The notes: generated from the sequence alone by a model not told the origin. 64,000 bases of DNA from Paecilomyces variotii (GCA_004022145.1 RCNU01000018.1); one strand, 5' to 3'; numbered from the stretch's first letter, positions 9,162 through 59,840 are shown. Program-made: numbers and translations.

Positions 9162-10542
9162 TTAGTCGACGCCAGGAGGGGCATCCTTGAGGATTTCCCA
9201 TCCATACTCCTCCTCAGGCTTTTCGGGTTCCATGCCCAAGGCGTTACGGTAGGCACGGACCTCGTTCTGAAGTCCAGCCACAATGCGGATAGGTAGCTCT
9301 TCCTCCTCGCAGCGGAGACGATAGGCGGTCCGAATCATCTCGGCACATTTCATGGTCATAGCGTGCCAGTGGTCGCGATCGAGACGGCTCTCGAGGTGGG
9401 CGTCACGCTCAGCTTGGAGGAGGTTGTTGTAGTGACGCTTCTGAGCAAGGAAGTGCATGGTGTTGTTGTGGCAGTAGTTACGGATCTGCTCAACCATGGT
9501 GCCGACAGCGGTCTCGTATTCTCCAATGAGTCTAGTATTCTCAACCTGCTCACGTTTCAAGACCTCAACGAGACGCTTTTCTTTAACGAGGGCCCGCTCA
9601 AGTTCCGCAATGCGCGCAGCTATCTTTGATTTTAGCGTGGAAAACGTGGAAACACTCTGAATGAACCTTACCACTTATTTCTCCATTGACCTGCTGCAGA
9701 TTAGGGCTGGCGCCTTCAGAGCTCGCACGTCTCTGGAGTTTACAAGTCAGCTCATCATATTTCAACCCATCAACCCCAAAGACTTGTCAGGGTACACGAA
9801 GAAGGCCCAGATATTGACGTACCATGATTTCCTCCGCGCTGTTGATGATGCCCTTGGTCATCTCGCGATTGTTCTTGAGCACCTCGCTCAATTCGAGGAC
9901 CATTTCATACAGATGGTTGAGGTCCATCTGATGGCCCGCATTCATGGGCATTCCACCATTGATCCCCGCCATTCCGCCACCGTTGACCTGGGCTGATGCG
10001 TGCGGAGGGGAAGGAGACGGAGTCTGACGTGGGATACCAGCGAGATTGGGGTTGTTGTCGATGTAATTGGTGAACATGCCACCTCCCGGAGAACTGTTGG
10101 GCAGGCCAGAACCGTTGCTGAGGGACATCCTCGCGCGGTTGAAGGCGCGGTTGAGCTCTCCAAAGACTGGATGCAATTCAGAGTTGGTGTCGAGCGGTTG
10201 GCGTAGGTGTGGTGGTGGAGTAGGACGAGTGGCAGCTTCGAGACCGCTGCGATCAGGACCGGGGTACTTCGCGTAGCTGAAGGTCGCGAGGAAGTTGTCG
10301 AGCTCTTCGCGGTTCAAAAAGCCCGACGCACGACGATGACGACGGAAACCCTGCTGAGGGACTCCAGGAGTCTGAGAAGATTGGAGGGGAGTATTATTAT
10401 TGGCGTCGCTATGCGGCAGGTTTATTGTCATGTTCCTCTGGTCCAGCTGCATTGGCGCCTGCTGGCTGCCGTATCCCGCGCCATCACTGAAAGGGTTAGG
10501 CGCGGAAGGGCCAGGCGGTTCGCTGCGACTTCTAGCGTGCAT
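9162..10542 (-). CDS. sipB: Coiled-coil protein, probable SIKE-like STRIPAK subunit (exons 10542-9823, 9732-9672, 9619-9162; ~412 aa)
   Basis: Spliced ORF stays in frame; low-complexity N-terminus, MDLNHLYEMVLELSEVLKNNRE segment, long C-terminal coiled coil; position two genes from crnA matches my recollection of A. nidulans sipB. Confidence 0.6.
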
Positions 10543-39473: not shown

Positions 39474-40469
39474 CTTGCGAATGGGATTTCTGCAGATACG
39501 GTGGGTTGAAGGCAGTTGTTGGTGTTGATGGATAACGATTCCCGTTGTATACACGGGATCCTGCTTCTCTTGTCCATGTAGCGTCTAACATCTACAGTGG
39601 GCACGGGGACTTTTGACGAGTTCTTTCCCGCCTCCACATGTTGGTCTTCGGTGGTCGCTTCATTTTTTACGGCGTGTTCAGACTCAGGCGGCGATGCGGG
39701 TTATCTACTTCTCAGATCCTTCAACGTCGATACACGTACACGGTATATGGATCTCCTTCGTTTCTTTTTTTGGTCGCGGAAAAGCGGGATGAATAGGATC
39801 AAGCTTCGTCGGAATCTACAGTTTACGTGGCACGTTTCGAATTTCAAGACTGATGCAGTAGACGATGTTAGAGCAGAAGAGAGAAATGTGTAACTTTAAT
39901 AATTCCATTTCCTCAATGGCCAGGGCCAGCGCACCAAGATAGAGCACGCATCTCCAGATCTCGAATACCATGTCGGGAAATGGCCTATTTTTGACTATGA
40001 GACCCGATGACGTTCCTTGGCGGTGGACCGCGCTGATTGACATGATGCAAGCCATGCCAAGATGGCGGCGATCAGGATGGAGTTTTACCAGTAGATACCT
40101 AGCTCATATGGGGAAGGTGGTCAATAATAATATGGCAGTATCCGTGGCTAGGGGGCTCTGCCGCAACAGATACATCTCCCCCCCAGTAAATCTATCTCCT
40201 GGGCATTTCTTGCTTTTCTCTTCAGCTGTGAATTTTCCAAACCGCCTAGATAGCTAGGTAGATAGATGGACACTGCCACTGAGGGTCTCATTCACGGGGT
40301 TTCTGCCATATAAGTAGTCACCGCCTGCCATAGAAGTCCTCGGAAGTCAACCGATACTCGGATCTTTCCTTCAGTTAATTGTTTCTTCACTTAATTGCTT
40401 CCATTGCTTCCTCAGTTAGTTAATTGCTACGAAAACTTCCCTTTTATTAAAGATAGATATCCTCTCAAT

Positions 40470-41498
40470 ATGACTGTCAACGTACCATCCTCTCCAGACT
40501 CGAATGGCTCCGCCCAGACTTGGTTCTCTCAAATCAAAAGGGATATACAAGCAGCAACTGAATATATGGAGCTGAGATATGATAATATCTCAGTAGAAAA
40601 GGGAGCGTTATTGGTAGAATCACTTTCGGAAGATCCTGACATTGAGAGACGCAATACGCGGTAATGATACCAGCAGAAATCTCCGAAAGATGTATCGTTT
40701 ATTATTATTATCTAAATTTAACTGATAATACTTATCAGATTCAGTTATAACTCGTTAATCAAAGTGCTCAACATTTTAATCATGCCTACAGAAGTCCATG
40801 ATGTTCATCAACATTGGATCGGCGAAGAAAAACTGGATATGGTACTTGCCGGATTCTTAACTCCCGCAGAAGGTTATGTGTTGACACTTGGAGTTGGCAC
40901 AAGTAGGCTATTTATATCTCTCTGATTCGATACGTATATTAACTGATATTGGATACCTAGTTATTGATCATTTCAGGGGACAGTATACCGGTTCCTTCAA
41001 GGCACCTGATATGCTTATACGTTATGAGCTTCAACCACTACCTAGTATCGCGGTAGAATCCGGATGGGCAGAATCACTGCCTCGTCTCCACGCAGACATA
41101 CGTCTGTGGCTTGAGGGTGGACAGCCAGATGTTTAACTTGTCATTGTCCTCTGTTGGACTAAGATGTCTGGAGCGCCCCTGCAACGCATAAAAGGGATCT
41201 TCGAAATATGGGAACGAGATGCTGGTAACTCTCCGTATCTTAAGTAAAATGGGGTAAGTTAAGAACCACCACACAACTGAGTAAGGAATTGATGATAACA
41301 ATAATATATTGATAGGATATCTTCCTAACGCTGGCAAATGCAGCTACCCAGGTAATACCTGTAACTCGCGCCCAGCTCTTCGGGCCGGTATATGTATTAC
41401 CTGGGAGGAATGGCACAGATGTATGGAATCTCTGCGTTGACATATTGCGGACTTGGGCGAGGAAGGCCATCGTTAAAATGGGTTATGTACCGGCGTGA
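40470..41498 (+). pseudogene. Disrupted copy of putative PD-(D/E)XK nuclease gene (exons 40470-40660, 40739-40902, 40961-41253, 41316-41498)
   Basis: Clear paralog of 54898-55909 with identical intron positions; in-frame TAA at 41134-41136 and 41245-41247. Confidence 0.85.
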
Positions 41499-41664
41499 CT
41501 ATCCTCCCTTCAACTGCGTATTTGTGTGATTGGACCATAATTTTCTTCATCTTCTCGATGTCTTGCCAAAAGTTTCCATCGACATGATGTATGTTGGAAT
41601 GGCGAGGGGAGCGCCCGGACTACATGATAATTTGAAATGGTAACGCCGTACTTTGGGTTATCTT

Positions 41665-41890
41665 TACCACTTTGGCCTGAGAACAAGTTTGTTTTTATAT
41701 TAGCTCTCATTGCCAAATTGAAATTTGACTAGATAGACTCTTCCAACAATCTACCTACTCTTGATTGATTATGAGATAGATAGATACCTAAGATACCTAG
41801 AATAGCCAATTGTCTTGTTCTTCTCTGCCCAATCAGCGCTATCGGATCCCTCCCTAAAGACACCTCACCGCCTAGAAGGTACCACCAATG
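41665..41890 (+). repeat. Conserved 3' non-coding block shared with 54697-54890 (inverted)
   Basis: GCCAAATTGAAATTTGACTAG and ATAGCCAATTGTCTTGTTCTTC...AATCAGCG.TATCGGATCCCTCC..AAGACACCTCACCGCCTAGAAG...CCACCAATG present downstream of both gene copies. Confidence 0.9.
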
Positions 41891-42120
41891 GTAAGCTCCC
41901 ATTTTCCGAACTGCCAGCCGGTCACGACTGAGTGTAGCCCGCATTGATGCTTTGTCCAACAACTAAGGGAAAAGGACCAAAAAAAAGGAGGTCATTGTCA
42001 AGGTGGACTGGATTTGCAGAAAACAGGGTTCCAGGTCCCCTCCAAAGACAAGGGAATAAAGCTGGATGTCAGTCTTTCTTTGATTGTTCTACATACATTC
42101 TTGGGTGAAGGGCCTCGACC

Positions 42121-45100
42121 ATGGCAACCGGCCGCGCCCACCAGAATCCTATCGTTTTGGTTATAGATTTCCACCATGCCAGGTGAGTGCGGGCGGAACC
42201 AGCATTTTCAGGAGAGAGAGGGAGATGTGATGTCGACTGTATCTCATCATGGAGACGGAGACTTTGTGGTCAATGAGGTTATCTATTCCGTGAAACAGGA
42301 CAATGGCTGATCAACCGGGCGCTGCTCGTATATAGAGGTCCTGAGATCGAGCACTGTTTCGGCGACGATGGGACGAATCCCGCGGTTGAGAACGACTGGT
42401 CCTTGCTGCCGTTCATGGCACTGTCCGATGGAGCGCATGCGTATGATCCCCTTTTCATTGCGTTCGATCCCAACCTCTTCCTCGAGGAGAGACGATCGAC
42501 AAAGGTCAATCGCTGACTTCTTCTCCGATGTTGCGTTTCAGATCCACGGAGGACTTCTCGTACTTCACCCTCCGACGCAATGCGACCGATGCAGAGCCCG
42601 CGACGTCGCTTTTTGGAATATCGTGCACGAGACAGCTCGATTCGAATTCGCTGATTAATCGACCCCCGGATGTGACGCGCTCTACGGTCCAGAAGGCGGT
42701 CGTGGTCGTGACGGATAGCCCGCAGTACTTTGGACAGCTAAGGGAGAAATTGTCCATCGTCACTTCCGCCTGGTTTGCGCAGCGGTAGGTGAATTGGGAT
42801 TTTGTTCCTGTGTGCTTGGTGGGAACGACAGCGCTGATGTGCTCTCGTCGATAGCGATTTTACCGACACAGATATCTTGAAGGTTGGTCTCGACAGTGGG
42901 TTCACACTTTATTGAGACTGACTGGTTTGCGATTCAGAAATTCCGAGAGGGTCTGATAATCAGTCTGAACAACGAGGGAGCCCAGAAGGACCAACAGCAG
43001 CTGGGTGAGTCCGGTTACTCCCCGAATCAGAATGACGCGAAAAGATAGCTGACCCGTCCAGAAGGCCTTTCCTTACGAGAAATGATCCATGAGTTCAGAC
43101 ATCAAACATTGGTTCTCTTCAAATGTCTATTATTACAGCCAAAGGTTTGAATGTCTGTACGAAACAGCATGACCCGTACTGATCTGTGCACCCCCAGATG
43201 CTCTTCTTCGGCTCGCGATGCGAGCGACTTTGCATGATACAATTTTCACTAATCTCTTTGATACCCGGACTTATTCATAATCTTCAAGACTGCGCGGATC
43301 CCTCTTTCGACACATACTCCCAGACGGTTGAGAAGCCAACCTCCCTAAAGACGAGTGAGAGGAGTTCACGTACGGTTGCCCTGCACTACAATCGAAGCTT
43401 CTCTGCTGACAGCTTTCAGTGCTTGCTTATATGGGCCTTCCTCTGCAGATCTTCGGCAAAGTAGGTCATCCTCTGCCCACGATCAATTGTTCGTTGCTAA
43501 TTCTGCCAGGGGAGCATGTTCGGACCCTATACGCCGCTGCAGCAGCTGGATCTGTTGGCAGACCATGGAACGAAATCTTACGTGGTTGGCTCAACCAATT
43601 CGTTACTTCTTCAGCAGAAGGACCGCTACAGTGATGTGATCATTAATGTGAGCAATTAGTCGCCGCGGGATCTTGTCACTCGTTCTAACCGTGTGGACAG
43701 CTCGACGAAGACACAATCAACATCTCGTCCCCATCACTACGCAACGCCTTGTCGCTTTCTGCGGCTGACAGACGATGGATCGACTTCCTTACGCAGACCA
43801 TCAACGAGACCTGGGACGAGGCGCATCCACAGCAACCAAAGACCCACGGCTACATGGGATCCGAAGAGTTCATTCGTTTGCAGTTCGAAGAATATCTGCT
43901 GGCTCTGCTTTCGAGTATGAAATACCATGAAGAGTTGAATTCGTATACACCCGGCTCAGGCAACGATTCGGGACGCAGAAACCGTATGCAGCTGCAGGCG
44001 TTGAATATCGAGGGCGACCCGGCGCTCGAGTTTAATGCCGACTTTCTGGCACAATGGCAGACAACACCGAACTATGCTCTCTTCAAGCGACTGACATCGG
44101 ATGCGCTGCTGTTCTCCATCGTCGAGCCCCGTCATCCTTGCGCGGGCGGTCTAACGATTGATGATATCCAGCGACGTCTGTCCCAGCAGGTCGCTGAATT
44201 GCACCTGGATGAACGGGTCCGCGAAGGCCGGGAGGCACTCAACAAACACCTTGCTACTGGCTCGAAGAAGGTCTCTGCAGCGTTCAACAGCTTCTGGGCA
44301 GACATCGAATCGATGCGGGAAGCTCAGCGGAAGAAGAACGAGGAGAAGGCTGGCCAGTCTGGAAATCGATTGTCAATAGACACTTCCGTACCGCCAACAC
44401 CCACCTCACCCCGAGTACCTTCATCAGCAGCCTCTGAGACCAGACCGTCATCATGGTTCTCCCGGAGGCCGCCGTCGGTTGACCTCACGCAGGCCCAGGC
44501 ATCTGTCGGTGTGGTGAGCCAGAAAGCAGGAGCGTACTTCAGTTCCTGGAGTTCATGGGCCAGCGAGCGCCGCAAAGAATGGCAAGATAAGCGGGCATCT
44601 GCAACATCTCCGCCTCCGATCGCGTCCCCATCTACCACAACCCTTGCCAGCGTTGTCGAGAAGCCCGAGGATGAGCGTGGAAGACAGGAGGCCGTGCCTC
44701 GCACCAGTGAGGACTCGATAGCTTTGTCACGAAGCGGCAGTATGAGTCTGTCGAGGAGCGGGAGCAGGAGAAAGAGATGGAGCCAGATGCTCCGACGGAA
44801 AAGCAACGATTCGGACTCTGCGTCTATGAAGGATGATGGCAGTCTTGAGCCTGGCAGCAACGACGTTCCATTGCCAAAGTCACCTCTGTCGCAGACGATG
44901 CCTGTTTTCCCAGACAGCACGGGATCGGAGGAATCGTCGTTAAAAGAGCCATCTGCAAAAGAAGCTGATCGCGCTGCAGCTGAAGCTAAACTCACCGCAT
45001 CCAGCCCCAGCACAGAGAACAAGGCTTCGGAGTCGATCCCTAACGAAGCCCCATCGTCCGCAAAGGCCCCCACGGAACCACCATCTACCACTTCAGCTCC

Positions 45101-45182
45101 AGCCTCATCAGAAACAGAGCTCCAAACCACAACACAACCCACGCAGAACGAATCCTCAACCTCAACAGAAACCACATCATGA
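42121..45182 (+). CDS. avl9: Avl9 family (DENN-like) late secretory pathway protein, many introns
   Basis: IDFHHARGPEIE, LPFMALSDGAH..TEDFSYFTL, LFGISCTRQ, VTRSTVQKAVVV, PYTPLQQL, LSAADRRWID, GSEEFIRLQFEEYL. Confidence 0.92.
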
Positions 45183-46440
45183 ACAGAAAGGAGAATGCCT
45201 CAATTTTGGAAACACAACCTTCCACGAGGTTCATAGTAATGCATTATTTCGATTTTCTCTTCTTTCTCACTTTTTCTTTACGCTCCTCCTGAGGCGTGTG
45301 TGTATGCTTTCATACAAGATATTATTCATAATTATATCCCCCTTGACAATTCACAGTAATTTATTCATAACCTTTTTTTTCTATTTTCTCCCCCCCCCCT
45401 TTCATTCTTCTTGTTAATGTTAATGTTGATGTTGATGCTGATCTAGATCTGACTTTCTTTTTTTGTACATTGTACCATACATTAGATACTTTGTCCCCTG
45501 CACTTGACTCTATTTAGTCCCAGCAGGAACTATCCATACATATTATATAACCTACCTCATCTACCTTGTTCAGTTTATATATCATATCATTACTATACCA
45601 TACACTCATCAACATTCTGATCGAAGAAAGCTAGCTTCTGTTACTGTAATGCGATCGACCTCCCCCTAGCCAGTAGGATTCACCAACGATACGACACGAT
45701 ACGATACAGATAGATAAGCTGGACTATGTTCTAATGGGATGCTGTTACGGCTGCTTTGCAGGATTGGTGCGCGCGTGGATGACTAGTATATACGTTAATA
45801 TTATATTATAGGCAAGGAGGGCCAGGGTCAAGATCAGAATACGGGGCCTAGATAGTTTGAATGGAATCAATGGATAGTTTAGACTACCTTGTTGCCGTGG
45901 TACTGTGCATACTTTTATGCTCGATACTGGGGAACGAGAAGAAAAGAAAAGAAAAAGGGTTTAGATATAAAATCTCCCTTTCGTGATCCCATAACAAAAA
46001 TATGAATCTGAGATGGCATATTTCTTTTTCTTCTTTTTTAAAAACCCACAACCTAATGTTACGTGATAAGTAGTACTATAGTAAATATGTATGATGGATT
46101 GATTGGGCTTCGGTTTGGATAGGCAAACCGACCCCAACAACCGACACGAACCGATCCGTTCTTGCCTTGCCTTGCTTTGCTTTAGCATGTCTTGTCCAAT
46201 GAGTTAAAGAGAAACCTTGGAGAGAGAAAAAAAGGAAGCCATCTGGGCTAATTCGCCGGGAATGTCATTTCAGCGCTTGGAAAAGAAAAGGAGAAACAGA
46301 GCAAAACCAGCAAGGGAATAAGCGACATTAGCAAACAAAAGGAGATCCGTTTCATCCGCCCTGCCGATGTGGCCTACAACAGGCGTATGGGACTATCACC
46401 AACGCTAAGAGAAAAACCAGCAGAAAAGAGTAAAAGTGAA

Positions 46441-49063
46441 TCAGGCAATGTAGGCCAGCTCATCCCCATCCAATCGCTCAATGTAGTCTTTCTCCATGAG
46501 TGCCTCGATGTTCTTCTTGATATCGGGCACCTTTGGTGGGAAACGGGCCTTGACCTGCTGGATGACCTCCTGGACCAGTTGGACATGCTTCATCTTCTTT
46601 CGGGACTTCATAATACGCACGATTGCGGACTGCCACTGGTTAGCGACTTGGAAGGATTAACGGTCGTAATATAAGTGGCTACATACCTGAAGCAACAACT
46701 TGCGGTCCTCCTCTATCGTCTTGTGGGTATCGTCTGACTCATGCTTCTGCTCGGACTTGATCTGAATGTTCAGATTGACCTTGATCTTCTTGTTCTTAAA
46801 GTTGTAGTTCAGGGAGAACGAGGTGCCTGGCCCAGGCTTTGCGCCTTCAGGAGATGGTAGGAGCACCTTGGCCTTGAGCAGAATGCTCAGGTTAGGTTCC
46901 AGAATCTCATTAGACAGGGCAGTCGCCTTCTGGATCTCCGAGAACTCCAGGGTGTCGTGCTCGTTGTAGAGAAGAAGGATACCCATCTGGAAGGTGGAAA
47001 CCTGGAAGGTGTATGGCACCTTGGTGTTCTTGATATAGTTTGCCTTAATCTCACCCTTGCACAGCTGCCACAGCCAGGTCAGCTTACGACCGCTGTGCTT
47101 ATCGAAATAGAAGCTCTGGAACCGTTCTGCCGTCTTGACAATTTCGGGTGGTGCCATAAAGTCGGTAGAAGGGGGATTCAGAGGCCAGAAACCAGTACCA
47201 AGAATCTGGAAATGGGGATCGATTGACTTCTTCCGGTCCTCTTCATCCAGGACCTTATCCTGCCAGTCCCTGTAGCTGGCGTTCAGATCCTTGGAGATCT
47301 GAATATCCTGGAACATACGCTGCAGCTTGTTCGTGTATTCGAAACCGCATGCTTCCTTCAGTTTGCTGATCATGCTCGTCTCCGCATCGTCTGACACAGA
47401 GCTCACGTGAACCAGACGCTTGGCCAGCATCTTCGAGTAGAATTTCTGAAAGACATCCTTGTCCTCGATGTACTTGAAGACAGTCATAATCTGGACCAGC
47501 ATTTCTTCCAGTTCCGACTCCTCGACAGCCTTGCTACCCTTCTTGAGAAGCGAGTCTGTGTAACGAGCCAGTAGCTCGGGGGACTTTGTCGAGCTCGACT
47601 TGCAGATCTTGTTGCGGTTGACGAACTCGCGGCAGGCATTGTCCAGGGATCGTACGAACTCGGACTCGCCTGCGAAGGCCGCAGCGACCAGGTTGGAGTA
47701 ACGGGTGTGGACCTGCAGGAGCGCATCCACATACATCTTGGGCTCGAAGTTCTCTCCCTCCGATGCAACCTTCTCCACAGCCGCCAAACCGGCCTTGCGG
47801 ACATGCGTTTCAAACTTGGTCCGCAGAGGGTCCAGACCATCCTTTATCCGCGACAGCAGCCTGTACATCCGAGCGAGATCATCCTGTCGTTCATTATCCA
47901 GCAGAACCTGGAACTCATCCCGCAGCAACCCCGAGTGAGCCGTCACCAAAACATCCAAGCAGGTATCCGTCAGGCGCTTGGTAATATCTGGGTGCAAGTA
48001 TAGTCCGACACGGGCCTTCTCTTCCTCCAGGCGAGCTTCTGCCTTCTTCATGTATTCCACCACGCTGTTCTCCGCCACAAAACGCCGCGACTCGTTCTCG
48101 TAGTACACCCGGGTGGCCGCGATGAAGGGTCTCTCGAAGTAGTACCTGTAGACTTCCAGCGTCGACTTGGAACTATCGTTTTCGTCCAGACCCAGCGATA
48201 CAAAGGAATCGACAATGTTCTTGATCTGAGATTGCTCAATCGTTTCGCCATTACGCTGCCTCTCGATCAGATTCAAAACAGCCTCCATCACCTTCTCCTG
48301 CACCTTCTTGAAGAAGTCCTCCTTCCACTTGACCAGGTGTAACGTGTAGACATCGTAGATGTTCTTCTTTCCCTCATCGATCTCCCGTTTTACCCAGTGC
48401 CGGTTGAGATACTTGAAAATGTGGTTGATGTACTTGGCTGCCGTCGTATATCGGGCCCATTCCCGAATGTAGAAGCCCAGAAGAGCCTCTTCCGCATGCG
48501 TCTCGGAGGCCTTGAACACGGTATCGAGATGGCGCGTCAGATACTGGCCTAGAAGGTTATACAATTCTTCACCGAGCAGATGCGCTGGGGGACTGTCAGT
48601 AAATTGCACGATCGATCGAGATAGCGAATTCACACACCCCCTCTATGTGCCTGCAGACCTTGGCTGCTGCCTACAGCCTTTTGTGATGTGCAGAAATTGT
48701 GGACGGCACTGTATCCTCGGTCAGCCTGGCGCTCTTCCATCTCCAAATTTCCAACAAGCGCGGTTCACGAACGTGTAAAGAGCCATATACTGTTATGAAG
48801 GCCATGTCAGTATGCCAACCAAACCCTGAGTGGGAGACCACATACCGTCTTCATATCGATGCCATCCTCCAGTTTCAGCATGACGCTGTCGATCCCTCTC
48901 TCCAAGAATGTCCACCTGGGCGCGAGAAAAAGCTCCAGTCAGCATCCATACTGCCTTCTTCCTTCTTTCCTCCATACGGCATGCGAGCAGGTTCTGCTCC
49001 GCGTGAGACTTACGTTTCCTCGAGGTCATCCTTGTGAGGGGTCGGGGGCATCACCGGCGGCAT
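46441..49063 (-). CDS. culA: Cullin-1 (SCF scaffold); includes a 17-nt microexon at 48773-48789
   Basis: YMALYTAVHNFCT, FKYLNRHWVKRE, PELLARYTDSLL, FKYIEDKDVFQKFY, HSGRKLTWL, neddylation region SAIVRIMKSRK. Confidence 0.96.
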
Positions 49064-50308
49064 GATCGCTTTTCCTCGACCACGGTGTGACAAGCGGGCA
49101 ATGAAGGAGGCTGTCGAGCGTGAGCTGGTTAGTTTCTTCATGGACAAACAGACAAAAAGCGGTAAGCGACATGCTTCAGCGGTGCTTTTTGACAAACAGA
49201 GCGGTCATATCGGCAGGGATTGTCCTTGTCGAGAACAGGCAACAGCAAGGTGAGACAGAAGGGCAGAAACGCAGTCGGTACCAAGGTAACCCGCCGATAG
49301 AGTTGTGCTCGATGTCTGGGTGCAGCAACGGGCGGTCATGGTCCGCGATATACCTAGGTAATTACACGATGCCGCACCCCGGAAGATCAAGCATAGCTAG
49401 GAGGAGTTGAGATGCGTAGGGGAGGCGAAGGAGCACGACTTACCGTCCGACTTGAGGCCTGAATCCACCAGGTGTCCCAACGATACCCCAAGGCCGTCAG
49501 TGGGGGCTCTAGAAGCAAGAGAAAGAAAATAAATAAAATTAGAAAATGAGAGCCCAAGAGAGCCGAAATGGGGTATGGGGGGGAGTCGGGGTTGGGATGC
49601 AGATGCAGGAAGAGATAGAGATGGTGCTGAGCTGTGTTCGGGGGTAATAATTAGTGAGCAGTGGAGAGGGTGTGGCGTGGCGGTCTTTTTCGGGTTGCCG
49701 CCAGCGATCGACGCGATCTGAGGCTGGGGGATCACTTCATGCCCGCGACAGCTGCTCTTCAGTTATTCTTAGTTATTCTTAGTTAAACATCCGGGGAAGA
49801 TTTCTACCCCAAAGCACTCACTAGTAGTTATGCCTATATGTAGAACAGTAGTTCCTTCAACTAGTTCTCGTCGCTAGATAAGCGCTGACAGCCCAGTCCC
49901 TGGCCACATGCCATCCCCGCGTCTGTGAGCTGGGGAGGCAATAATTATTATTGGAATTGTGATGGCGTTCGTCTATGTATCTATCTACGTTGAAAGACAC
50001 AGGTTCAACTGGATGTTAGTCAACACCAGTTCACTCAGATAGCATACCCTTTCATACATACTCCTAGCAACAAAAAATCCTTAAAGAAGAAGAATATTCT
50101 CTTCTTAACTAATGAACTAATACACTGGAGGACACAGAGTACATCTTGAAACATGACGTCATTGCTTGCTATTGGGCTTTTCTTCAATTTCTCTGCATAT
50201 GTTAGTTACCAGTTCTTCATACACTACTACTACTATAGCGACGCAAGTATTATACAAAGGGCATCATCAAACAGAGTGATAAAGAGAGAGACATACACAA
50301 AAAAAATC

Positions 50309-50833
50309 ATGACCATAAATCCAGCATCCGAAATCCGCATCACCCAACGTCTCATCCCCGCCTGGAAAGGCATCCCCAACACCTCGATCCAATCCAAACC
50401 ACTCCTGATCTACCACAACGCCTTCCAAGCCTCTGCATCTGAACTTTCGTCCCGTTTACAGAAGATCGGTGCAGTCGTCCCGCAGTGGCAATACAGCATG
50501 TATCCCACGACGCATTTCCATTCCACCACCCATGAGGTCCTGGGGGTCGTGTCCGGGCGAGCACGGCTGTGTTTCGGAGGTGAGGGTTATCCAGAGCGGT
50601 TCGAGCCAACGGTACAGAAGGGCGATTTGATGATCGTGCCTGCGGGGGTAGGCCATCGTTTGTTGGAGGATCTGGATGGCGGCTTCAAGATGGTCGGGTC
50701 ATATCCTCCAGGGAAGCAGTGGGATATGTGTTATGGGCAAGAGGGGGAGGATAAGGTTAAGAGTATTGAGAAGTCGGGTTGGTTCGAGAAGGATCCGCTC
50801 TACGGCGATGAGGGGCCAGCCTTGGAGGTTTAG
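50309..50833 (+). CDS. Cupin-domain protein (YjlB-like)
   Basis: IPNT...PLLIYH, HFHSTTHEVLGV..G, GDLMIVPAGVGHR, MVGSYP, DPLYG..GP; start could be upstream at 50153. Confidence 0.85.
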   Translation: MTINPASEIRITQRLIPAWKGIPNTSIQSKPLLIYHNAFQASASELSSRLQKIGAVVPQWQYSMYPTTHFHSTTHEVLGVVSGRARLCFGGEGYPERFEPTVQKGDLMIVPAGVGHRLLEDLDGGFKMVGSYPPGKQWDMCYGQEGEDKVKSIEKSGWFEKDPLYGDEGPALEV

Positions 50834-51238
50834 GAGGAGATGAATGGCATCAAATTGCTCGCAATGGGCAGACAGTCCGCCCAGAGTGGCATTGACTCGG
50901 TACGATTTCGAATGAATAATAGTAACTAATATCAATAATGAAATATCTAGTATACTCGCCGACCACAATTCTTGATTGCAACAAAAGTACCTGCCCTTTT
51001 GGCCTTCCCCTAGGCCTACCTATCCATGCCGCGAAACGCCGCCAAATGACAAAAGAGATCACTAGTGGTCGAAAAAAAAAAGAAAGATTAAGAAGACGCG
51101 AAGAGCCTCCGACGGGGAGGCGCCAAACAGCATCCTCGCCGCAGTACGTTGAATGCAACATAATATATACCTAAGAAGGAGCAAGATGTAGAAGATGGCC
51201 GGAATGGCAGGAGATGGACATGGCCTGGCCATATATGA

Positions 51239-52531
51239 TCACTGAGCAACCCGTTCGACAACCCTAATGTCGGAACTCTGTCAGAACATCTTCACCAGGG
51301 TCATGGGAAAGGAAAGCCAAAGTACATACCTTAACACACTAACCGCAAATGTCATTAACCACGCAATTAAGGCGATCAGCAAGACCGAGGCGAGAGCCTT
51401 TTGGCGATCGCAGATCTTGTCATTCCGCCCGTCCCAAATATCGTTGACCTGCGCCTCCGTACAGGAACCGGTCACATCGGACAGGGCTTCGAAAGCCAGG
51501 CTGAGGTTGGCAGAATCGAAAACAATAAAGAAAAGATCCAGGAAGATAAGCCTCATTTTCGATCGAGCTTTCCGGAGACCCAATGGTTTCCCGGTATATT
51601 CGTCCCACGTAACATAAACAATGTAGACGAGAGCCACCGCATCGACGACAATGGCCATAATGCCAGAGGGCCCTTGGGGATGTCTATACGTTTCTGCAAG
51701 ATGCTGGATAGTGCCACCCAGCGCGAGAGCAGTCAAAGAAAACACCCAGACAGTGAGTCGAAAGACCAGGGGCACAATTGGACTCCTGATGAGAGTAGTC
51801 TGAAGCCGCTTGTACCATATCTGGCGCTTTTTCTTCGGAGGCAGTGCTTTCTCAAGATCCTCGTCGTGTTGAGTCCCTGCCAGCCACGGCTGGGAATAGT
51901 CACCCAGGTTCTGATTCAGCCATTCTGGTGTCACGACTTGATCCTCAAGTGAGCGCTCGAGGGGATACGCAATAGGTCTGGCAAAGGTCCACCAACGCGA
52001 CTGACGTTCGCCTTGGTTCGCGTCGCCATTGAGGCCATTCTCTCTGGAGCCATTGATGTCCACTCCCTGTTTCGAGTGCGGGGAGAAGTTGTGCTGAGCC
52101 ACTACGGCCTCACCTGGTGGGAGGAGACGAGTTGTCGCATCGGTATCATCCTCGCGAAGATCAACTGACTGTATCCATGCTGGACGATGTTAGCCTGACC
52201 ACTGGCAAGCATCCCCCGGGTATAGAGAATAATACTCACCAGGCAGAGTCCGTACGTCGGGAGTCGTAGGTCGCTCCCGGTCATTGCCTTGTGAACGAAC
52301 GTCGTCACCGGAACGTACAGCAGACAGTGAAGGACCAGCGGAAGACTCCAGAGTAGCAGTGCGAGGGCGTCCAACGGAATGCGGTTCACTTCCCGACCCA
52401 TTGGGTGTGCCCAGCCGGTTCTGTGTTCTATCTATACTTGGGGGTTCCAGCAGCGTGATCTGCGACCTGCTAGCTGCCGGTACGTCTGAGGTGTCTGTGA
52501 TCGGGGATAATGCAGATGCATTTTCGGCCAT
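51239..52531 (-). CDS. Regulator of phospholipase D Srf1-like membrane protein
   Basis: DYSQPW, SPIVPLVFRL, YVTWDEYTGKPLGLR, LDLFFIVFDSANLSLAF, ICDRQKALASVL, spliced end LRVVERVAQ. Confidence 0.82.
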
Positions 52532-53075
52532 TGCCTTTGCTCAATGGCCCGGTGAAAGGGCTTGCGGCGAAGTCTCGTCACGGCGGGTATGCTCGAGGGC
52601 TCTGATCGACATGACCCGATGATCGCCTGGTAAGAGTCGAGATTCTAGGCCTTTGGAGGAGCAAAACCCATTAAAAAAGAATGGAAGCAGGACGAAGCCT
52701 GCAAAGTAGACTGAGGAAGTCAGAAAAGAAAAGAAAACGAGTGGAACGGGAGGGGCGGAAAGGTCCCCAGATAGACCTGAAGCTTGATTGCCTGGAAACG
52801 GGAGGTTGGTGTTTGCGTTTCCGGTCGTCTTTTTGTCCTCGGCTGCGGATGACGTCTGAACACCAAACAGCTGCGAGCTTGGGCCTTTCAACATCAGGAG
52901 AAGAAGAAAAAGACCGAGTGAGTCTCCCAGACTGGATACGAAGCGATGACCTGAGGAGACGCACGCTGTCTCGGCCGCTCTTTTCTGCTTTCTTCTTTTC
53001 TCGCGACGCTGCAGTAGTCGTTAACTCACCACCTGACCCCCCTGAACCGGCCCTATCACGTCGTATATCGTTGCC

Positions 53076-54048
53076 ATGCGCCTCTTCCTCTTGCCAGTCT
53101 CGACGAGACGAGCGCTCATATACGGCCAGCCCCTCACAAAGCAAGTCGCCAACAAGCTTTCCTACACAGACAGAGTGACGCTGAAGGTTGCTGAGACATG
53201 GTCGAAGTGGGAGGAAGCCGAAAAAGGGTGGAAGAAATCGCTGGTCACCTGGGGCAATACTGTTCAGCAGCGGATCCCCTATGAAGAATGGGGCCTGAAG
53301 AGCATCCCTCCTTTGAACGAGCGGCGACGCATCGAAGAGACGACTCAGGGTAAAAAGATCGATCTGTTGTTTCCAGGAAATGCGATCAAGCCCGATAAGG
53401 TCATAGCAGCTGTGAGAAAGCTGGCCACGGAGAGACAGGATCTCCATCGGAAGAGGATGTGGTGGAGTTTGATAATCGCGCCCTTCACAGCGCCAATTGC
53501 GTTGATCCCAGTGTAAGACTGAATCTGTTGCTCGCTATTTACTATGGCTGAAGCCTCGACCTAACCCCAACCTGCTACAGAGTACCCAATATACCCTTTT
53601 TCTACCTGGCGTACCGCGGCTGGTCGCACTGGCGAGGTCAGTCGTGCTCTGTTACCTGGTTTGTACCACACTGACTGTCATCCCAGCGTTGAGCGGATCG
53701 AAGCATCTACAGTTCTTAGTGGAAAACAATCTACTAAATCCAATACCTTCGCCGGAAATCGAGCGCGTCTACGAAGGAGCTGTTGCCACCTTTGGTGCGA
53801 AAGCGGATCTGGAGAAGACAACATCCTCGACAGCATCCGTCGAAGAGATCGAGGAAAAGGACGAGAAGATCTTGCTCAATCTCTGCGACGGCAAGGAACT
53901 GGCAAAAATACTGAATGCCCCAGAACTCGTCGTGGAAGTCGAGCGTGCAGTGACGCAGATCAGTAAAAAGTTGAAACAGGAACACGCGCTAGTCGAGGAC
54001 GGCAAGAAATTGGAATCTTCGAAGAACAAGAACAAAGAAACGAAATAA
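53076..54048 (+). CDS. Mitochondrial K+/H+ exchange-related protein (YDL183C-like), 2 introns
   Basis: MRLFLLPVSTRRALIY, RIPYEEWGLKSIP, APFTAPIALIP.VPNIPFFYLAYRGWSHWRALSGSKHL, EVERAV.Q. Confidence 0.82.
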
Positions 54049-54696
54049 CGGCAGTATCTGAATGATTACCAGACCTGTGAATGCGTGCAATGATATGTTG
54101 ACTGGACGTGCAATTCTCAACAAAGTGTCCATTTGAAGACCATGAGTTCATTTTTTACAATTTTCCGTTCTTAGGAAGTTTCTGGTGTATGTGTCATATG
54201 TCCATGAGGGTTGTGTAAATTATAGAGCAACATAGAACTTCTCTTGATGTACGATAGGTTTGCTTTTCCATGTGGGCTTAAGTATGCCTGTTGAAAACGA
54301 TACTCTTTGTCAGATGAGAACTAAATAATGAAATCCTATTGGATACTCTGATGATTAATTGATATTATAACAGTATTCACGAGAATGCACTTGCAGAGAC
54401 CTCTACTCAGCTGGAAGTCTCCAGTCCTAGATCTTGATATAGTTCTCTTTTAGCCTATTCAGAATGACTGAAAGAAATGGCAAGGGCTTAATTCCCCCGC
54501 CATCGCTACCACGGACAGACAATACACAAGCTGGTTCTCTTTTTCAGGACGTTGGCAGGTTACACTATGTATGGGATGCATGTGTATGTACACTACTGTT
54601 TTCGCTATTTGCGTGAGGTCATTCGCGCCAGAAAAGCAGGCTGGTTATTGTTCTAGTTGAAGTAGAAATCTCAATTTTGCTCAAAGATGACAAGTT

Positions 54697-54890
54697 CATT
54701 GGTGGCTTCTTCTAGGCGGTGAGGTGTCTTCGGGAGGGATCCGATATCGCTGATTGGCCAAGGAAGAACAAGACAATTGGCTATCTCATACTGTAGAGCA
54801 GATTGTGAAAAGGGTCTGTTACTAGTCAAATTTCAATTTGGCGGCAGCTAATAATAATACACAAACTATCTTCAGGCAAAAAGTGAAAAG
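54697..54890 (-). repeat. Conserved 3' non-coding block, second copy
   Basis: Reverse complement matches 41665-41890. Confidence 0.9.
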
Positions 54891-54897
54891 ATGACAG

Positions 54898-55909
54898 TCA
54901 CGCCGGTATGTAACCCATTCGATTGATGGCCTTGCTGGCCCAAGTCCTCAGTAGGTCAACGCGGAGATTCCATATATCCGTGCCATTCTGCCCAGGAAAT
55001 ATATGCGCCGGTCCGAAGAGTTGGGCGCGAGTAATGGGTATTACTTGGGGACCGAGATTCGCCGGTGGAGGAGGAAAGATAGCCTATGATTATTTCTTTA
55101 CTTAGTTTTCTGGTTCTTAAGTATCCACTGGAATAATAACTTACCCCACTATCCTTGCAATATGGCGTATTAGCGGTATCTCGCTCCCAAATCTCATATT
55201 TTCCTTTGACGCGTTGGATGGGTGTGCCTGAGATCTTGGACCAGCGGAGGATGATGACAAGCTGGACATCTGGCTCTCCGCCCACAAGCCACAGCCGCAT
55301 ATCCGCGTGGAGGCGGGGCAGTGATTCTGCCCACCCGGACTCTATCGCGATGCTTGGCAGTGGTTCAAGTTCATGCCGTATGAGCATGTCGGGATCCTTA
55401 CGTGAACCGGTGTATGGTCCATTGAGATGGTTGATGGCTATCCACTATTAGCAAATATACGTATCAAATCAAGGGGATATTAGCCTACTTGTACCAACTC
55501 CGAGTGTTAAAGCGTGACCCTCTGCGGCAGTCAAGAAACCGCCAAGAACCATATCCAGTTTTTCTGAAGAGATCCAGTGTTGGTGCACATCGTGCACCTC
55601 AGTCGGCATTACTAACACGTTCAGAGCCTTTACAAACGAGTTGTAACTGAATCTAATAAGCAACATTAGTTAAGTTAAACAAGGTATATATCTTTCCTGT
55701 TTCTGGTTGTAATCTTACCGCGGGCGGTATCTTTCAACGTCTGAGTCCTCTGAGAGCGAATCAACTAGTAAGGCTCCCTTGTCTTCTGAGATATTCTCGT
55801 ATCTCAACTCCACCGATTCACTTGCTGCCCGTATATCGCTCTTAATTTGATAGAACCAAGTCTGGGCAGAGTTATTCAACTCTGCAACGGGTGGTGTGCC
55901 AACAGTCAT
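54898..55909 (-). CDS. Putative PD-(D/E)XK (Uma2-like) nuclease, intact, 277 aa (exons 55909-55719, 55652-55489, 55437-55145, 55083-54898)
   Basis: Exon lengths 191+164+293+186=834 nt, no internal stop, GT-AG introns; motifs MPTEVH, K-x-PD, PSIAIESGWAES..RL..D..LWL resemble the Uma2-like restriction-endonuclease fold. Confidence 0.7.
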
Positions 55910-55916
55910 GATACAA

Positions 55917-56033
55917 GATGTTGAAGGTGAGGGATGTCCAAGGCGCCGGATGTTTAAGGTGACAGATATTCAAGGTGAGAGAGAGATGTTTGATGTGAGA
56001 GATGTTCAAGGCGACGGATGTTCAAGGTGACAG
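55917..56033. repeat. ~17-bp tandem repeat x7 (GATGTTCAAGGTGACAG-like)
   Basis: Degenerate copies directly upstream of the nuclease ATG; period not a multiple of 3. Confidence 0.8.
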
Positions 56034-56074
56034 CGCTTCTTCGTATTGATTATGTAATCCAGGTGTTTTTTGGG

Positions 56075-56450
56075 GAGCCGCCTCTCTGAGGCTGGCTAAT
56101 ACCAGCTCAGGAACAGCAACGGAAGATCGTGCAGTCAATGAGAGGGTTTGAGGAGCCGCCTCTCCGAGGCTGGCTAATACCAGCTCAGGAAAAGCAACGG
56201 AAGATCGTGCAGTCAATGAGAGGGTTTGAGGAGCCGCCTCTCCGAGGCTGGCTAATACCAGCTCAGGAAAAGCAACGGAAGATCGTGCAGTCAATGAGAG
56301 GGGTTGAGGAGCCGCCTCTCCGAGGCTGGCTAATACCAGCTCAGGAACAGCAACGGAAGATCTCGCAGTCAATAAGAGGGGGTAGAGGAGCCACCTCGCT
56401 GAGGCTGGCTGATACCAGCTAAGGAACATCAGTGGACGGTCTTGCAGTGG
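56075..56450. repeat. 78-bp tandem repeat, 4 near-identical units plus 1 diverged
   Basis: GAGCCGCCTC starts at 56075, 56153, 56231, 56309, diverged unit at 56388; partial degenerate copies at ~56619 and ~56723. Confidence 0.95.
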
Positions 56451-56612
56451 ATGAAGGTGACTCAGTGGACGAAGGTGATTCAGTCGATGAAGGGTCATTC
56501 GATGAAGGGTCACTCGATGAAGGGGACTCAGTGGATGAAGGGGACTTACTCGATGAAGCAGACTCAGTTGATGAAATGGGACTCAGTTGATGAAGGGACT
56601 CGGTTGATGAAG
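56450..56612. repeat. 15-18-bp tandem repeat (GATGAAGG(T/G)GACTCAGT(G/T)), ~9 copies
   Basis: Repeated GATGAAG..GACTCAG units. Confidence 0.85.
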
Positions 56613-57345
56613 GGAAGCGAGCTGCCTCACTGAGGCTAGCTGCCAAAACAAAGAGCAGCCACAGACACTCACAACTGAGACCAGCCAGAGAGGAGAGAGA
56701 AGAGGATGGATGAGAGGGGTTGGAGCTGCCTCTCAGAGGCCAGCTGCTGGCTCTCTTGGATGTGGGTAGATGAGAAGACTGATGAGCTGGGGAGAAAAGA
56801 GGAGGAAAAAGAAAGAGGAGAAGAGGGGGGGAGGAGGAGTCTTAAGTAGTGATTGGGCTCAGTCACCCCGGTGAGAGCATTGGTGAATATCAACAGTGAA
56901 AATGGAAGGTGCGCAGGCTGCCCGCCTTTGCCGCAGTTGAGTCACATAGTAAAGATACTCCTCATTCGTATACGAAAGCCTTTAATAATTTTTGCACATG
57001 TATATAGTCTTACTTGAATATTGAGGAGGGTATTTACAAAAGGACCCAGCAATAGGAACAAAGGCTGCCATTTCCGCCAAACTCAGCATCGTCACGAAGA
57101 CAATTCCGCCGACAATCGCGTACGCAGTCAGCATCGACGCCGGTCCTCCTGTAGCCAAGGACTTTCATTGCGCCGTGAGCACCTCGCCAATGAGATGGCT
57201 TGCAAACAGGGGTAGTTAGAATGTAAGGAAAAGAGATAGGAAAAGAGACCCGTAAAGAACAGATGCCCGCCAAACAGTCAAGGTGAACAGGAGATGTAGG
57301 ATAAGAACATGGAGGGACACTGAATTTACATTTCACGCTTGCACG

Positions 57346-59786: not shown

Positions 59787-59840
59787 TACAATATTACGTT
59801 CATAATGTGAAGCTACAATATTACGTTCATAATGTGAAGC
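59787..59840 (+). repeat. Perfect 27-bp tandem duplication
   Basis: TACAATATTACGTTCATAATGTGAAGC x2. Confidence 0.95.

Follow-up and report, generated by a model that had tools for sequence, protein, structure and literature searches.

A conserved non-coding block with three CCAAT boxes behind paralogous Uma2/DUF820-like genes of Paecilomyces variotii, possibly linked to a convergent antisense transcript

A stretch of 64,000 nucleotides of the Paecilomyces variotii genome (GCA_004022145.1, RCNU01000018.1), hereafter the window, contains two inverted copies of a gene for a nuclease-like protein, each followed by a conserved non-coding block of about 90 nt. This block may be a selected promoter-type CCAAT module linked to a spliced antisense transcript that converges on the gene; this is the explanation we favour, tentatively and at slightly less than an even chance. 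The sharp end of the similarity between the two copies is the junction of a 2,464-bp insert, present in the window's strain and located between End3 and Mit_KHE1. What looks at first sight like a eukaryotic guide-RNA scaffold is not one.

The two paralogous units lie in inverted orientation at 40470-41890 on the plus strand (copy A) and 55909-54697 on the minus strand (copy B). Four public runs (X7, X12, X13 and X15), in every case in the form of contigs, were compared with the window over 40000-55980. Run X7 is RNA of the window's strain: of the 15 joints listed, 14 fall at gene introns and are bounded by GT..AG or CT..AC, and a loose end with poly(A) and adapter is found at 45572. The gene of copy B (54898..55909, minus strand; exons 55909-55721, 55651-55490, 55435-55145 and 55083-54898) is intact, and its spliced minus-strand product is identical to a 277-aa hypothetical protein of P. 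variotii (P0001). All three of its introns are spliced in X7, in a contig with a depth of 1897.5. The gene of copy A (40470..41498, plus strand; exons 40470-40658, 40740-40901, 40963-41253 and 41316-41498), of which introns 2 and 3 are spliced in an X7 contig, carries on translation two in-frame TAA codons in exon 3, at 41134-41136 and 41245-41247. It is annotated as a truncated protein of 176 aa (P0278) in the window's strain and as proteins of 276 and 281 aa in two other strains; because of these premature stops and longer versions, copy A is a pseudogene in the window's strain that is still segregating within the species. An A-type protein of 281 aa (P0284, strain DTO169E5) has a five-residue tandem duplication, VESGW VESGW, at the conserved ESGW motif, a putative active site.

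The family as a whole is multi-copy, varies between strains and includes segregating pseudogenes. Strain DTO166G4 carries an A-type gene (P0279, tag _2756) and a third paralog type (P0003, tag _2763, 71% identical) seven locus tags apart, a spacing that resembles that of A and B in the window. The neighbourhood of End3 may hold different family members in different strains.

In a global alignment, the similarity of the two units starts at the ATG (40470 / 55909) and stops at ...CCACCAATG (41890 / 54697); nothing upstream of the ATG is common to both copies. The exons are identical in 622 of 828 columns (75%), with 122 transitions and 81 transversions between them, and the identity at codon positions 1, 2 and 3 is 80.4, 86.9 and 58.9%, respectively. 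Identity in the three introns, counted over alignment columns, is 44-72%, so that the poorly aligning introns and heavily diverged synonymous sites of a preliminary description of this DNA are both borne out. Repeat-induced point mutation (RIP) was rejected as a source of the exon divergence, since neither unit departs from the window average in its RIP dinucleotide indices. A gap in the alignment of the 3' region corresponds to a 156-nt segment specific to copy A (41515..41670) and missing from copy B. This segment has no second copy inside the window; in runs X12 and X15, contigs of other loci resemble it at about 88%, and it probably stems from the insertion of a small dispersed repeat in the 3' flank of copy A.

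The encoded protein had been described as a nuclease, a label that is justified by its predicted fold only. The copy B protein has no match in Pfam; among 51 members searched at E<=0.01 no nuclease family was found, and the two families that did appear are unrelated, each hit by one member of the 51. A sequence profile search of PDB (E<=10) gave a single match, to an unrelated protein G chain (E=0.27). Relatives are nonetheless numerous, as a profile search of 1.84 billion representatives returned 729 at E<=1e-3, mostly of 270-290 aa. The AlphaFold2 model, built from a 51-sequence alignment, has a pLDDT of 95.2 and a pTM of 0.91. With this model, the eight top-ranked Foldseek matches are all Uma2/DUF820 or restriction endonuclease-like chains (1wdj A/B, 6okh A/B, 9y1l A/B, 3ot2 and 3ijm), with TM scores to the target of 0.47-0.62. 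Just one match falls at E<=0.001; 1wdj_A gives E=2.4e-4 and a TM to target of 0.62, and 3ot2_A a TM to target of 0.60. No RuvC/TnpB chain occurs among the Foldseek matches listed. Candidates for catalytic acidic and lysine residues are E108, K132, D135 and E151, each of them conserved in 90% or more of the 51 sequences. The model thus predicts a restriction endonuclease-like fold of the Uma2/DUF820 type, not that of RuvC, TnpB or Fanzor. In the Uma2/DUF820 literature, no fungal family appears in the titles and abstract openings of the matches listed, and the family may still be described elsewhere.

Block A (41802..41890, plus strand) and the reverse complement of block B (54697..54784, minus strand) are identical in 80 of 89 columns, with eight substitutions and one 1-nt indel, close to the roughly ten differences in about 90 nt reported earlier. 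Block B lies 114-201 nt past the first base of the stop codon. A 21-nt island, GCCAAATTGAAATTTGACTAG, is indeed identical in both copies, at 41712..41732 (plus strand) and 54822..54842 (minus strand). The identity of the block lies above that of introns and third codon positions and exceeds even that of second codon positions; the best 89-nt exon window reaches 76/89, and the binomial probability of at least 80/89 at the exon rate is 4e-4, uncorrected for window choice. The 3' flank is heterogeneous (P ~9e-8), consisting of two islands, 21/21 and 80/88, with a diverged spacer of 18/35 between them. The block and the 21-mer therefore appear as two discrete footprints, unlike one conversion tract. 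These figures, which come from the comparison of two copies, together with the lack of a RIP signature, uphold the proposal that the block is under its own selection; it is a real conserved non-coding module, whose role is most likely regulatory.

A coding role of the block was rejected on account of the 1-nt indel, the lack of an ATG on the antisense strand and, on the sense strand, the presence of a terminal ATG alone. A 77-aa open frame spanning block A had one match in a protein search, namely the orthologous A locus of another strain, in which the block is translated identically and the spacer carries a 9-nt indel, a weak observation that hinges on chance ORF calls. Solo copies of the block, which the preliminary description had envisaged, did not turn up: no other copy is present in the window, and an exact 20-mer of the block has 0 matches in metagenome contigs. 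A protein-guided search of metagenomes confirmed 11 of 126 candidates as related loci, and neither the block nor the 21-mer occurs in any of the 11 (blastn, word 7, E<=10; chance-level matches of at most 36 nt). The only close one among the 11 loci with a 3' flank (L001, 63% aa identity) contains no block, no 21-mer and no CCAAT in that flank (520-1120); the block is therefore not family-wide.

Three CCAAT pentamers are found in each block, all on the sense strand of the gene and kept in both copies, as had been described. They start at 41806, 41829 and 41885 in copy A, and in copy B they read as ATTGG on the plus strand at 54698, 54753 and 54776. Three same-strand CCAAT within 89 nt occur at three places in the window, the two blocks and an unrelated one at 10380-10455. 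Pyrimidines make up 56-60% of the block's sense strand. CSAAT is given as the consensus of the fungal CCAAT-binding complex (CBC) in PMC7144946, where the composite CBC:HapX site is CSAAT-N12-RWT with exact spacing. The blocks differ from this composite as it is worded there: behind box 2, GAT comes after 11 nt and ATC stands at N12, and behind box 1, CTC or CCT stands at N12. The pentamers are short, and the block might be bound by the CBC (HapB/C/E). The third CCAAT of copy B overlaps the repeat at the insert junction (see below) and may be partly target-derived. The titles and abstract openings of the literature on CCAAT in P. variotii do not treat this locus.

At copy A, an antisense intron of 82 nt (41677..41758, minus strand; GTAGGT...GCTAAT...CAG) contains the 21-mer. 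In X7 it shows up as the joint 41675->41758, bounded by CT..AC; the contig concerned has a depth of 133.9 and at least 255 letters on each side of the joint. The runs consist of contigs, which merge overlapping transcripts, and the antisense strand is read from the ends of the splice joint; the same contig also holds the spliced exons 2-4 of copy A. This contig (record 22) further covers block A and continues into Avl9, a gene identified by Pfam PF09794 whose start codon (42121) lies 231 nt downstream of the 3' end of block A. The mean X7 depth in the bin 41599-42131, 116.3, is that of the 133.9 contig minus the 82-nt intron, plus a repeat contig with a depth of 22.4; RNA therefore covers block A. 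Antisense splicing at copy A and RNA cover of block A are thus shown. The GT, the CAG and an AGCTAAT branch site are all retained in copy B, and these conserved signals predict a putative antisense intron of 83 nt (54793..54875, plus strand; GTAGAG...GCTAAT...TTCAG), as against 82 nt in copy A; the same antisense RNA may be made there. The high-depth mRNA contig of copy B seems, from depth arithmetic, to end at about 54813, past the 21-mer and before the block, although the end of a contig is no evidence for the end of the RNA.

In X12, X13 and X15, the three P. variotii-type runs of other strains, the contigs that reach 54701 from the left depart from the window there, always with an identical 30-nt continuation. 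This 30-mer equals window positions 57171-57200 with 0 mismatches (0 of 100 shuffles match), and therefore the three other strains join 54701 directly to 57171. The 2,464 bp missing from them (54702..57165, minus strand) lie between two copies of a 5-bp direct repeat, CATTG, the left one at 54697..54701, where the contigs exit, and the right one at 57166..57170, followed by the 3' side of End3 (PF12761); the left flank is intergenic and faces the convergent Mit_KHE1. In the sense direction of copy B, the insert comprises an amino-acid-permease fragment, about 1.1 kb with 78-nt and 18-nt repeats, copy B, the 21-mer and block B. The permease fragment of 42 aa (57039..57164, minus strand) starts 1 nt from the insert boundary, matches Pfam PF00324 (E=4.8e-7, 29.3 bits against a cut-off of 24.6, profile positions 22-62 of 470) and shares 95% identity with P0171, a P. 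variotii permease, over a segment too conserved to date or locate the donor. Upstream of copy B, the insert carries a tandem array of four to five 78-nt units (55991..56454); over 55991-56576, 78-nt units with 82-100% identity are followed by the 18-nt repeats. This stretch may contribute promoter or 5'UTR sequence to copy B. Another part of the window, 59787-59840, is a perfect tandem duplication of a 27-nt unit. Contig 19 of X15 covers 41829-45677 and, some 190 nt further on, contains a piece 88% similar to 54422-54556, which is either a dispersed repeat at the contig end or a rearrangement in that strain.

Since the breakpoints coincide with the end of the A/B similarity and the start of the permease similarity, the difference appears far better explained by an insertion than by loss of the segment from the other strains, and the insert would have been copied from a donor locus outside the window. 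Because copy B and its 3' flank sit at one end of the insert, the similarity must stop at 54697-54701. The preliminary description was right that it ends abruptly at the same base in both copies, but with the base of copy B being the insert junction, this coincidence is uninformative on the extent of the conserved element: it marks the limit of the copied segment, not that of the element in copy A or in the donor. The suggestion of an element terminus fares likewise, in that the end is indeed the junction of a strain-specific insert, but one that has no transposon-like ends and tells nothing about the block. Cut-and-paste or rolling-circle transposons have defined termini, either inverted repeats or 5'-TC...CTRR-3'. 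Across the six registers that CATTG permits, no terminal inverted repeat was found at the insert (0-1 nt of terminal inverted identity), its ends give a local inverted score of 8 against a null of 7.5 +/- 1.6, and a repeat search found no inverted pair there; Helitron-like 5'-TC/3'-CTRR ends and an A-rich tail were also not found. Copy A reads CAATG at the matching point, right after ...CCAC, and because of this the simplest account of the CATTG repeat is a 5-bp microhomology between donor and target. A true target-site duplication is possible, and the repeat is as well explained by microhomology.

Under the favoured explanation, the block would act at the DNA level as a CCAAT-box promoter module for the CBC/Hap complex, selectively kept since an old duplication of the Uma2/DUF820-like gene. 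Its task would be to initiate or control a spliced antisense transcript that enters the nuclease-like gene convergently from the 3' end, with the block located just upstream of the first 5' splice site of this transcript or inside its first exon, and with the 21-mer placed inside the antisense intron, near the expected processing point of the sense mRNA. Transcription may thus start at the block, and the antisense RNA might regulate the gene. Block A could possibly also serve as a bidirectional promoter for Avl9. The earlier proposal of a cis-regulatory module is in this way retained on the grounds of the CCAAT boxes and the antisense splice, but not in the form of a CBC:HapX composite site. 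Several points speak against the favoured explanation: the comparison covers two copies, the pentamers are short and deviate from the CBC:HapX composite, the third box of copy B may come in part from the target site, the antisense joint appears, among the joints listed, at copy A only, and L001 is devoid of block, 21-mer and CCAAT in its flank. In addition, the block lies no more than 201 nt from the stop codon, which is an ordinary 3'UTR distance.

This last point introduces an unlikely alternative, namely that the block is the distal 3'UTR of the nuclease-like mRNA, containing an RNA-level element for protein binding, stability or localisation, with the antisense transcript as a mere by-product. 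In copy B, all of the 3' flank that can be aligned amounts to 201 nt directly after the stop codon, a usual length for a fungal 3'UTR, the RNA contig of copy A is unbroken from exon 4 through the block, and the flat folding scores reported below are compatible with it, as linear protein-binding elements need no secondary structure. However, the dominant assembled path over 41677-41758 at copy A is spliced in antisense and is not unspliced sense RNA, a trio of CCAAT boxes in one orientation is characteristic of DNA-level elements, and copy B preserves the antisense splice signals. The orientation of the boxes might instead mean that the block, unrelated to the nuclease-like gene, is a proximal promoter for whichever gene follows in the sense direction, which is Avl9 in the case of copy A and another gene at the donor of copy B. 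Every CCAAT faces Avl9 at a short distance from its ATG, and RNA is found over the interval from block to Avl9; yet the old duplication must then have kept a promoter beside two different downstream genes, and the 21-mer and antisense splice signals, nearer to the nuclease-like gene, also belong to the conserved flank. We give this reading a slim chance. An absence of function, with the identity being a gene-conversion patch or a mutational cold spot, is very improbable: paralogs can exchange short tracts and only two sequences are compared, but the identity is heterogeneous over 140 nt in a manner unlike a single tract, and the copies, which show no RIP bias, are otherwise 75% identical with saturated third positions.

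The gene and its 3' block might also travel together as a mobile cassette, in which the block is the terminal recognition sequence and integration takes place at CAATG with a 5-bp duplication, perhaps through the Uma2-like nuclease. The presence/absence polymorphism of copy B, its end exactly after the block, the 5-bp direct repeat and the CAATG right after ...CCAC in copy A agree with this proposal, as do a multi-copy, strain-variable family with segregating pseudogenes and the A-B-like spacing of P0003 and the A-type gene in DTO166G4. What makes it rather doubtful is that none of the expected termini (inverted repeats in six registers, 5'-TC/3'-CTRR ends, A-rich tail) is found at the insert, that the insert breaks off on its other side at an arbitrary position within a permease exon, that copies A and B are unlike upstream of the ATG, and that the block has no further copy in the window, 0 metagenome matches and no counterpart in the 11 related loci; the CATTG microhomology, moreover, accounts for the repeat without a transposase. 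A broader version, with little probability in its favour, would place Uma2-like genes of Eurotiales on small mobile cassettes in which the CCAAT block serves both as terminus and as outward or antisense promoter, with CAATG integration, a 5-bp duplication and the End3/Mit_KHE1 interval as a recurrent landing site. If it were true, this interval would have at least three states: empty, B-type and possibly P0003-type.

The last alternative, that the block is an omega-RNA-like guide scaffold for the adjacent nuclease, has a negligible probability. The TnpB/Fanzor omega-RNA system has an adjacent nuclease of RuvC fold, and it is the layout alone, a conserved 3' block and then a variable flank beside a nuclease-like gene, that had led the preliminary description to this speculation and, more generally, to a non-coding RNA scaffold. 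Neither is sustained. The protein is predicted to have a Uma2/DUF820 fold, and the block shows no structure signal, as its folding z-scores on both strands of both copies (+0.67, -0.08, +0.69 and -0.73) are no better than those of shuffled sequences. Rfam gave no match over 40000-56500 (E<=1) apart from a weak SNORD29 elsewhere, and ARAGORN found no tRNA-like gene. The 'variable flank' of copy B is ordinary, pre-existing target-site DNA, present in the strains without the insert, and the idea that the nucleotides just beyond the block might match other loci found no support either, the 20 nt after block A having no other match in the window with up to three mismatches. The omega-RNA scaffold was rejected on these grounds. 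The SNORD29-like C/D-box match (49111-49146; 23.5 bits, E=0.9, below the gathering score) is located inside an unusually long intron of 333 nt (49111-49443, minus strand), which is spliced in RNA (joint 49110->49444), and it is possible that it represents an intronic snoRNA.

The locus thus offers a strong non-coding footprint, the CCAAT block with the 21-mer, behind an uncharacterised gene and tied to spliced antisense RNA, in a tractable mould. It also illustrates how similarity between paralogs can break off sharply simply because a strain-specific insertion ends there, as can be demonstrated from public read sets. Of more interest are two by-products, namely that a Uma2-like gene was inserted in a strain-specific manner and that the unannotated family is so large. 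This is a large fungal family with a confidently predicted Uma2/DUF820 nuclease-like fold and without a Pfam model, whose members are gained, lost and decayed between strains of one species, a behaviour typical of selfish or conflict-related genes.

Among known systems, TnpB/Fanzor with its omega-RNA has a superficial likeness of layout only, a nuclease-like gene followed by a conserved 3' block, and differs in that the present protein has a different predicted fold and 277 aa, with no RNA structure, no guide-like flank and no transposon ends at the locus. The 2,464-bp insert, being strain-polymorphic and flanked by a 5-bp repeat, resembles a microhomology-mediated templated insertion or a transposon with a 5-bp duplication; unlike a transposon insertion, it is without inverted repeats, LTRs, poly(A) or a known transposase and has one end inside a permease exon fragment. 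The model of the fungal protein is similar in fold to the Uma2/DUF820 proteins TT1808 (PDB 1wdj) and Ava_3926 (3ot2), from which the fungal proteins differ by the lack of membership at the sequence level (Pfam, PDB profile) and by an extra N-terminal region of about 80 aa. The block may also be likened to the CBC (HapB/HapC/HapE) promoter modules of Aspergillus: it has three CSAAT matches, kept between old paralogs and beside transcribed DNA, although it sits 3' of a gene and not in an annotated promoter. Finally, compared with known convergent natural antisense transcripts, the present one comes from assembled contigs of one run and its regulatory effect is putative; like them, copy A has a spliced minus-strand RNA over its 3' region, and the splice signals of this RNA are kept in copy B.
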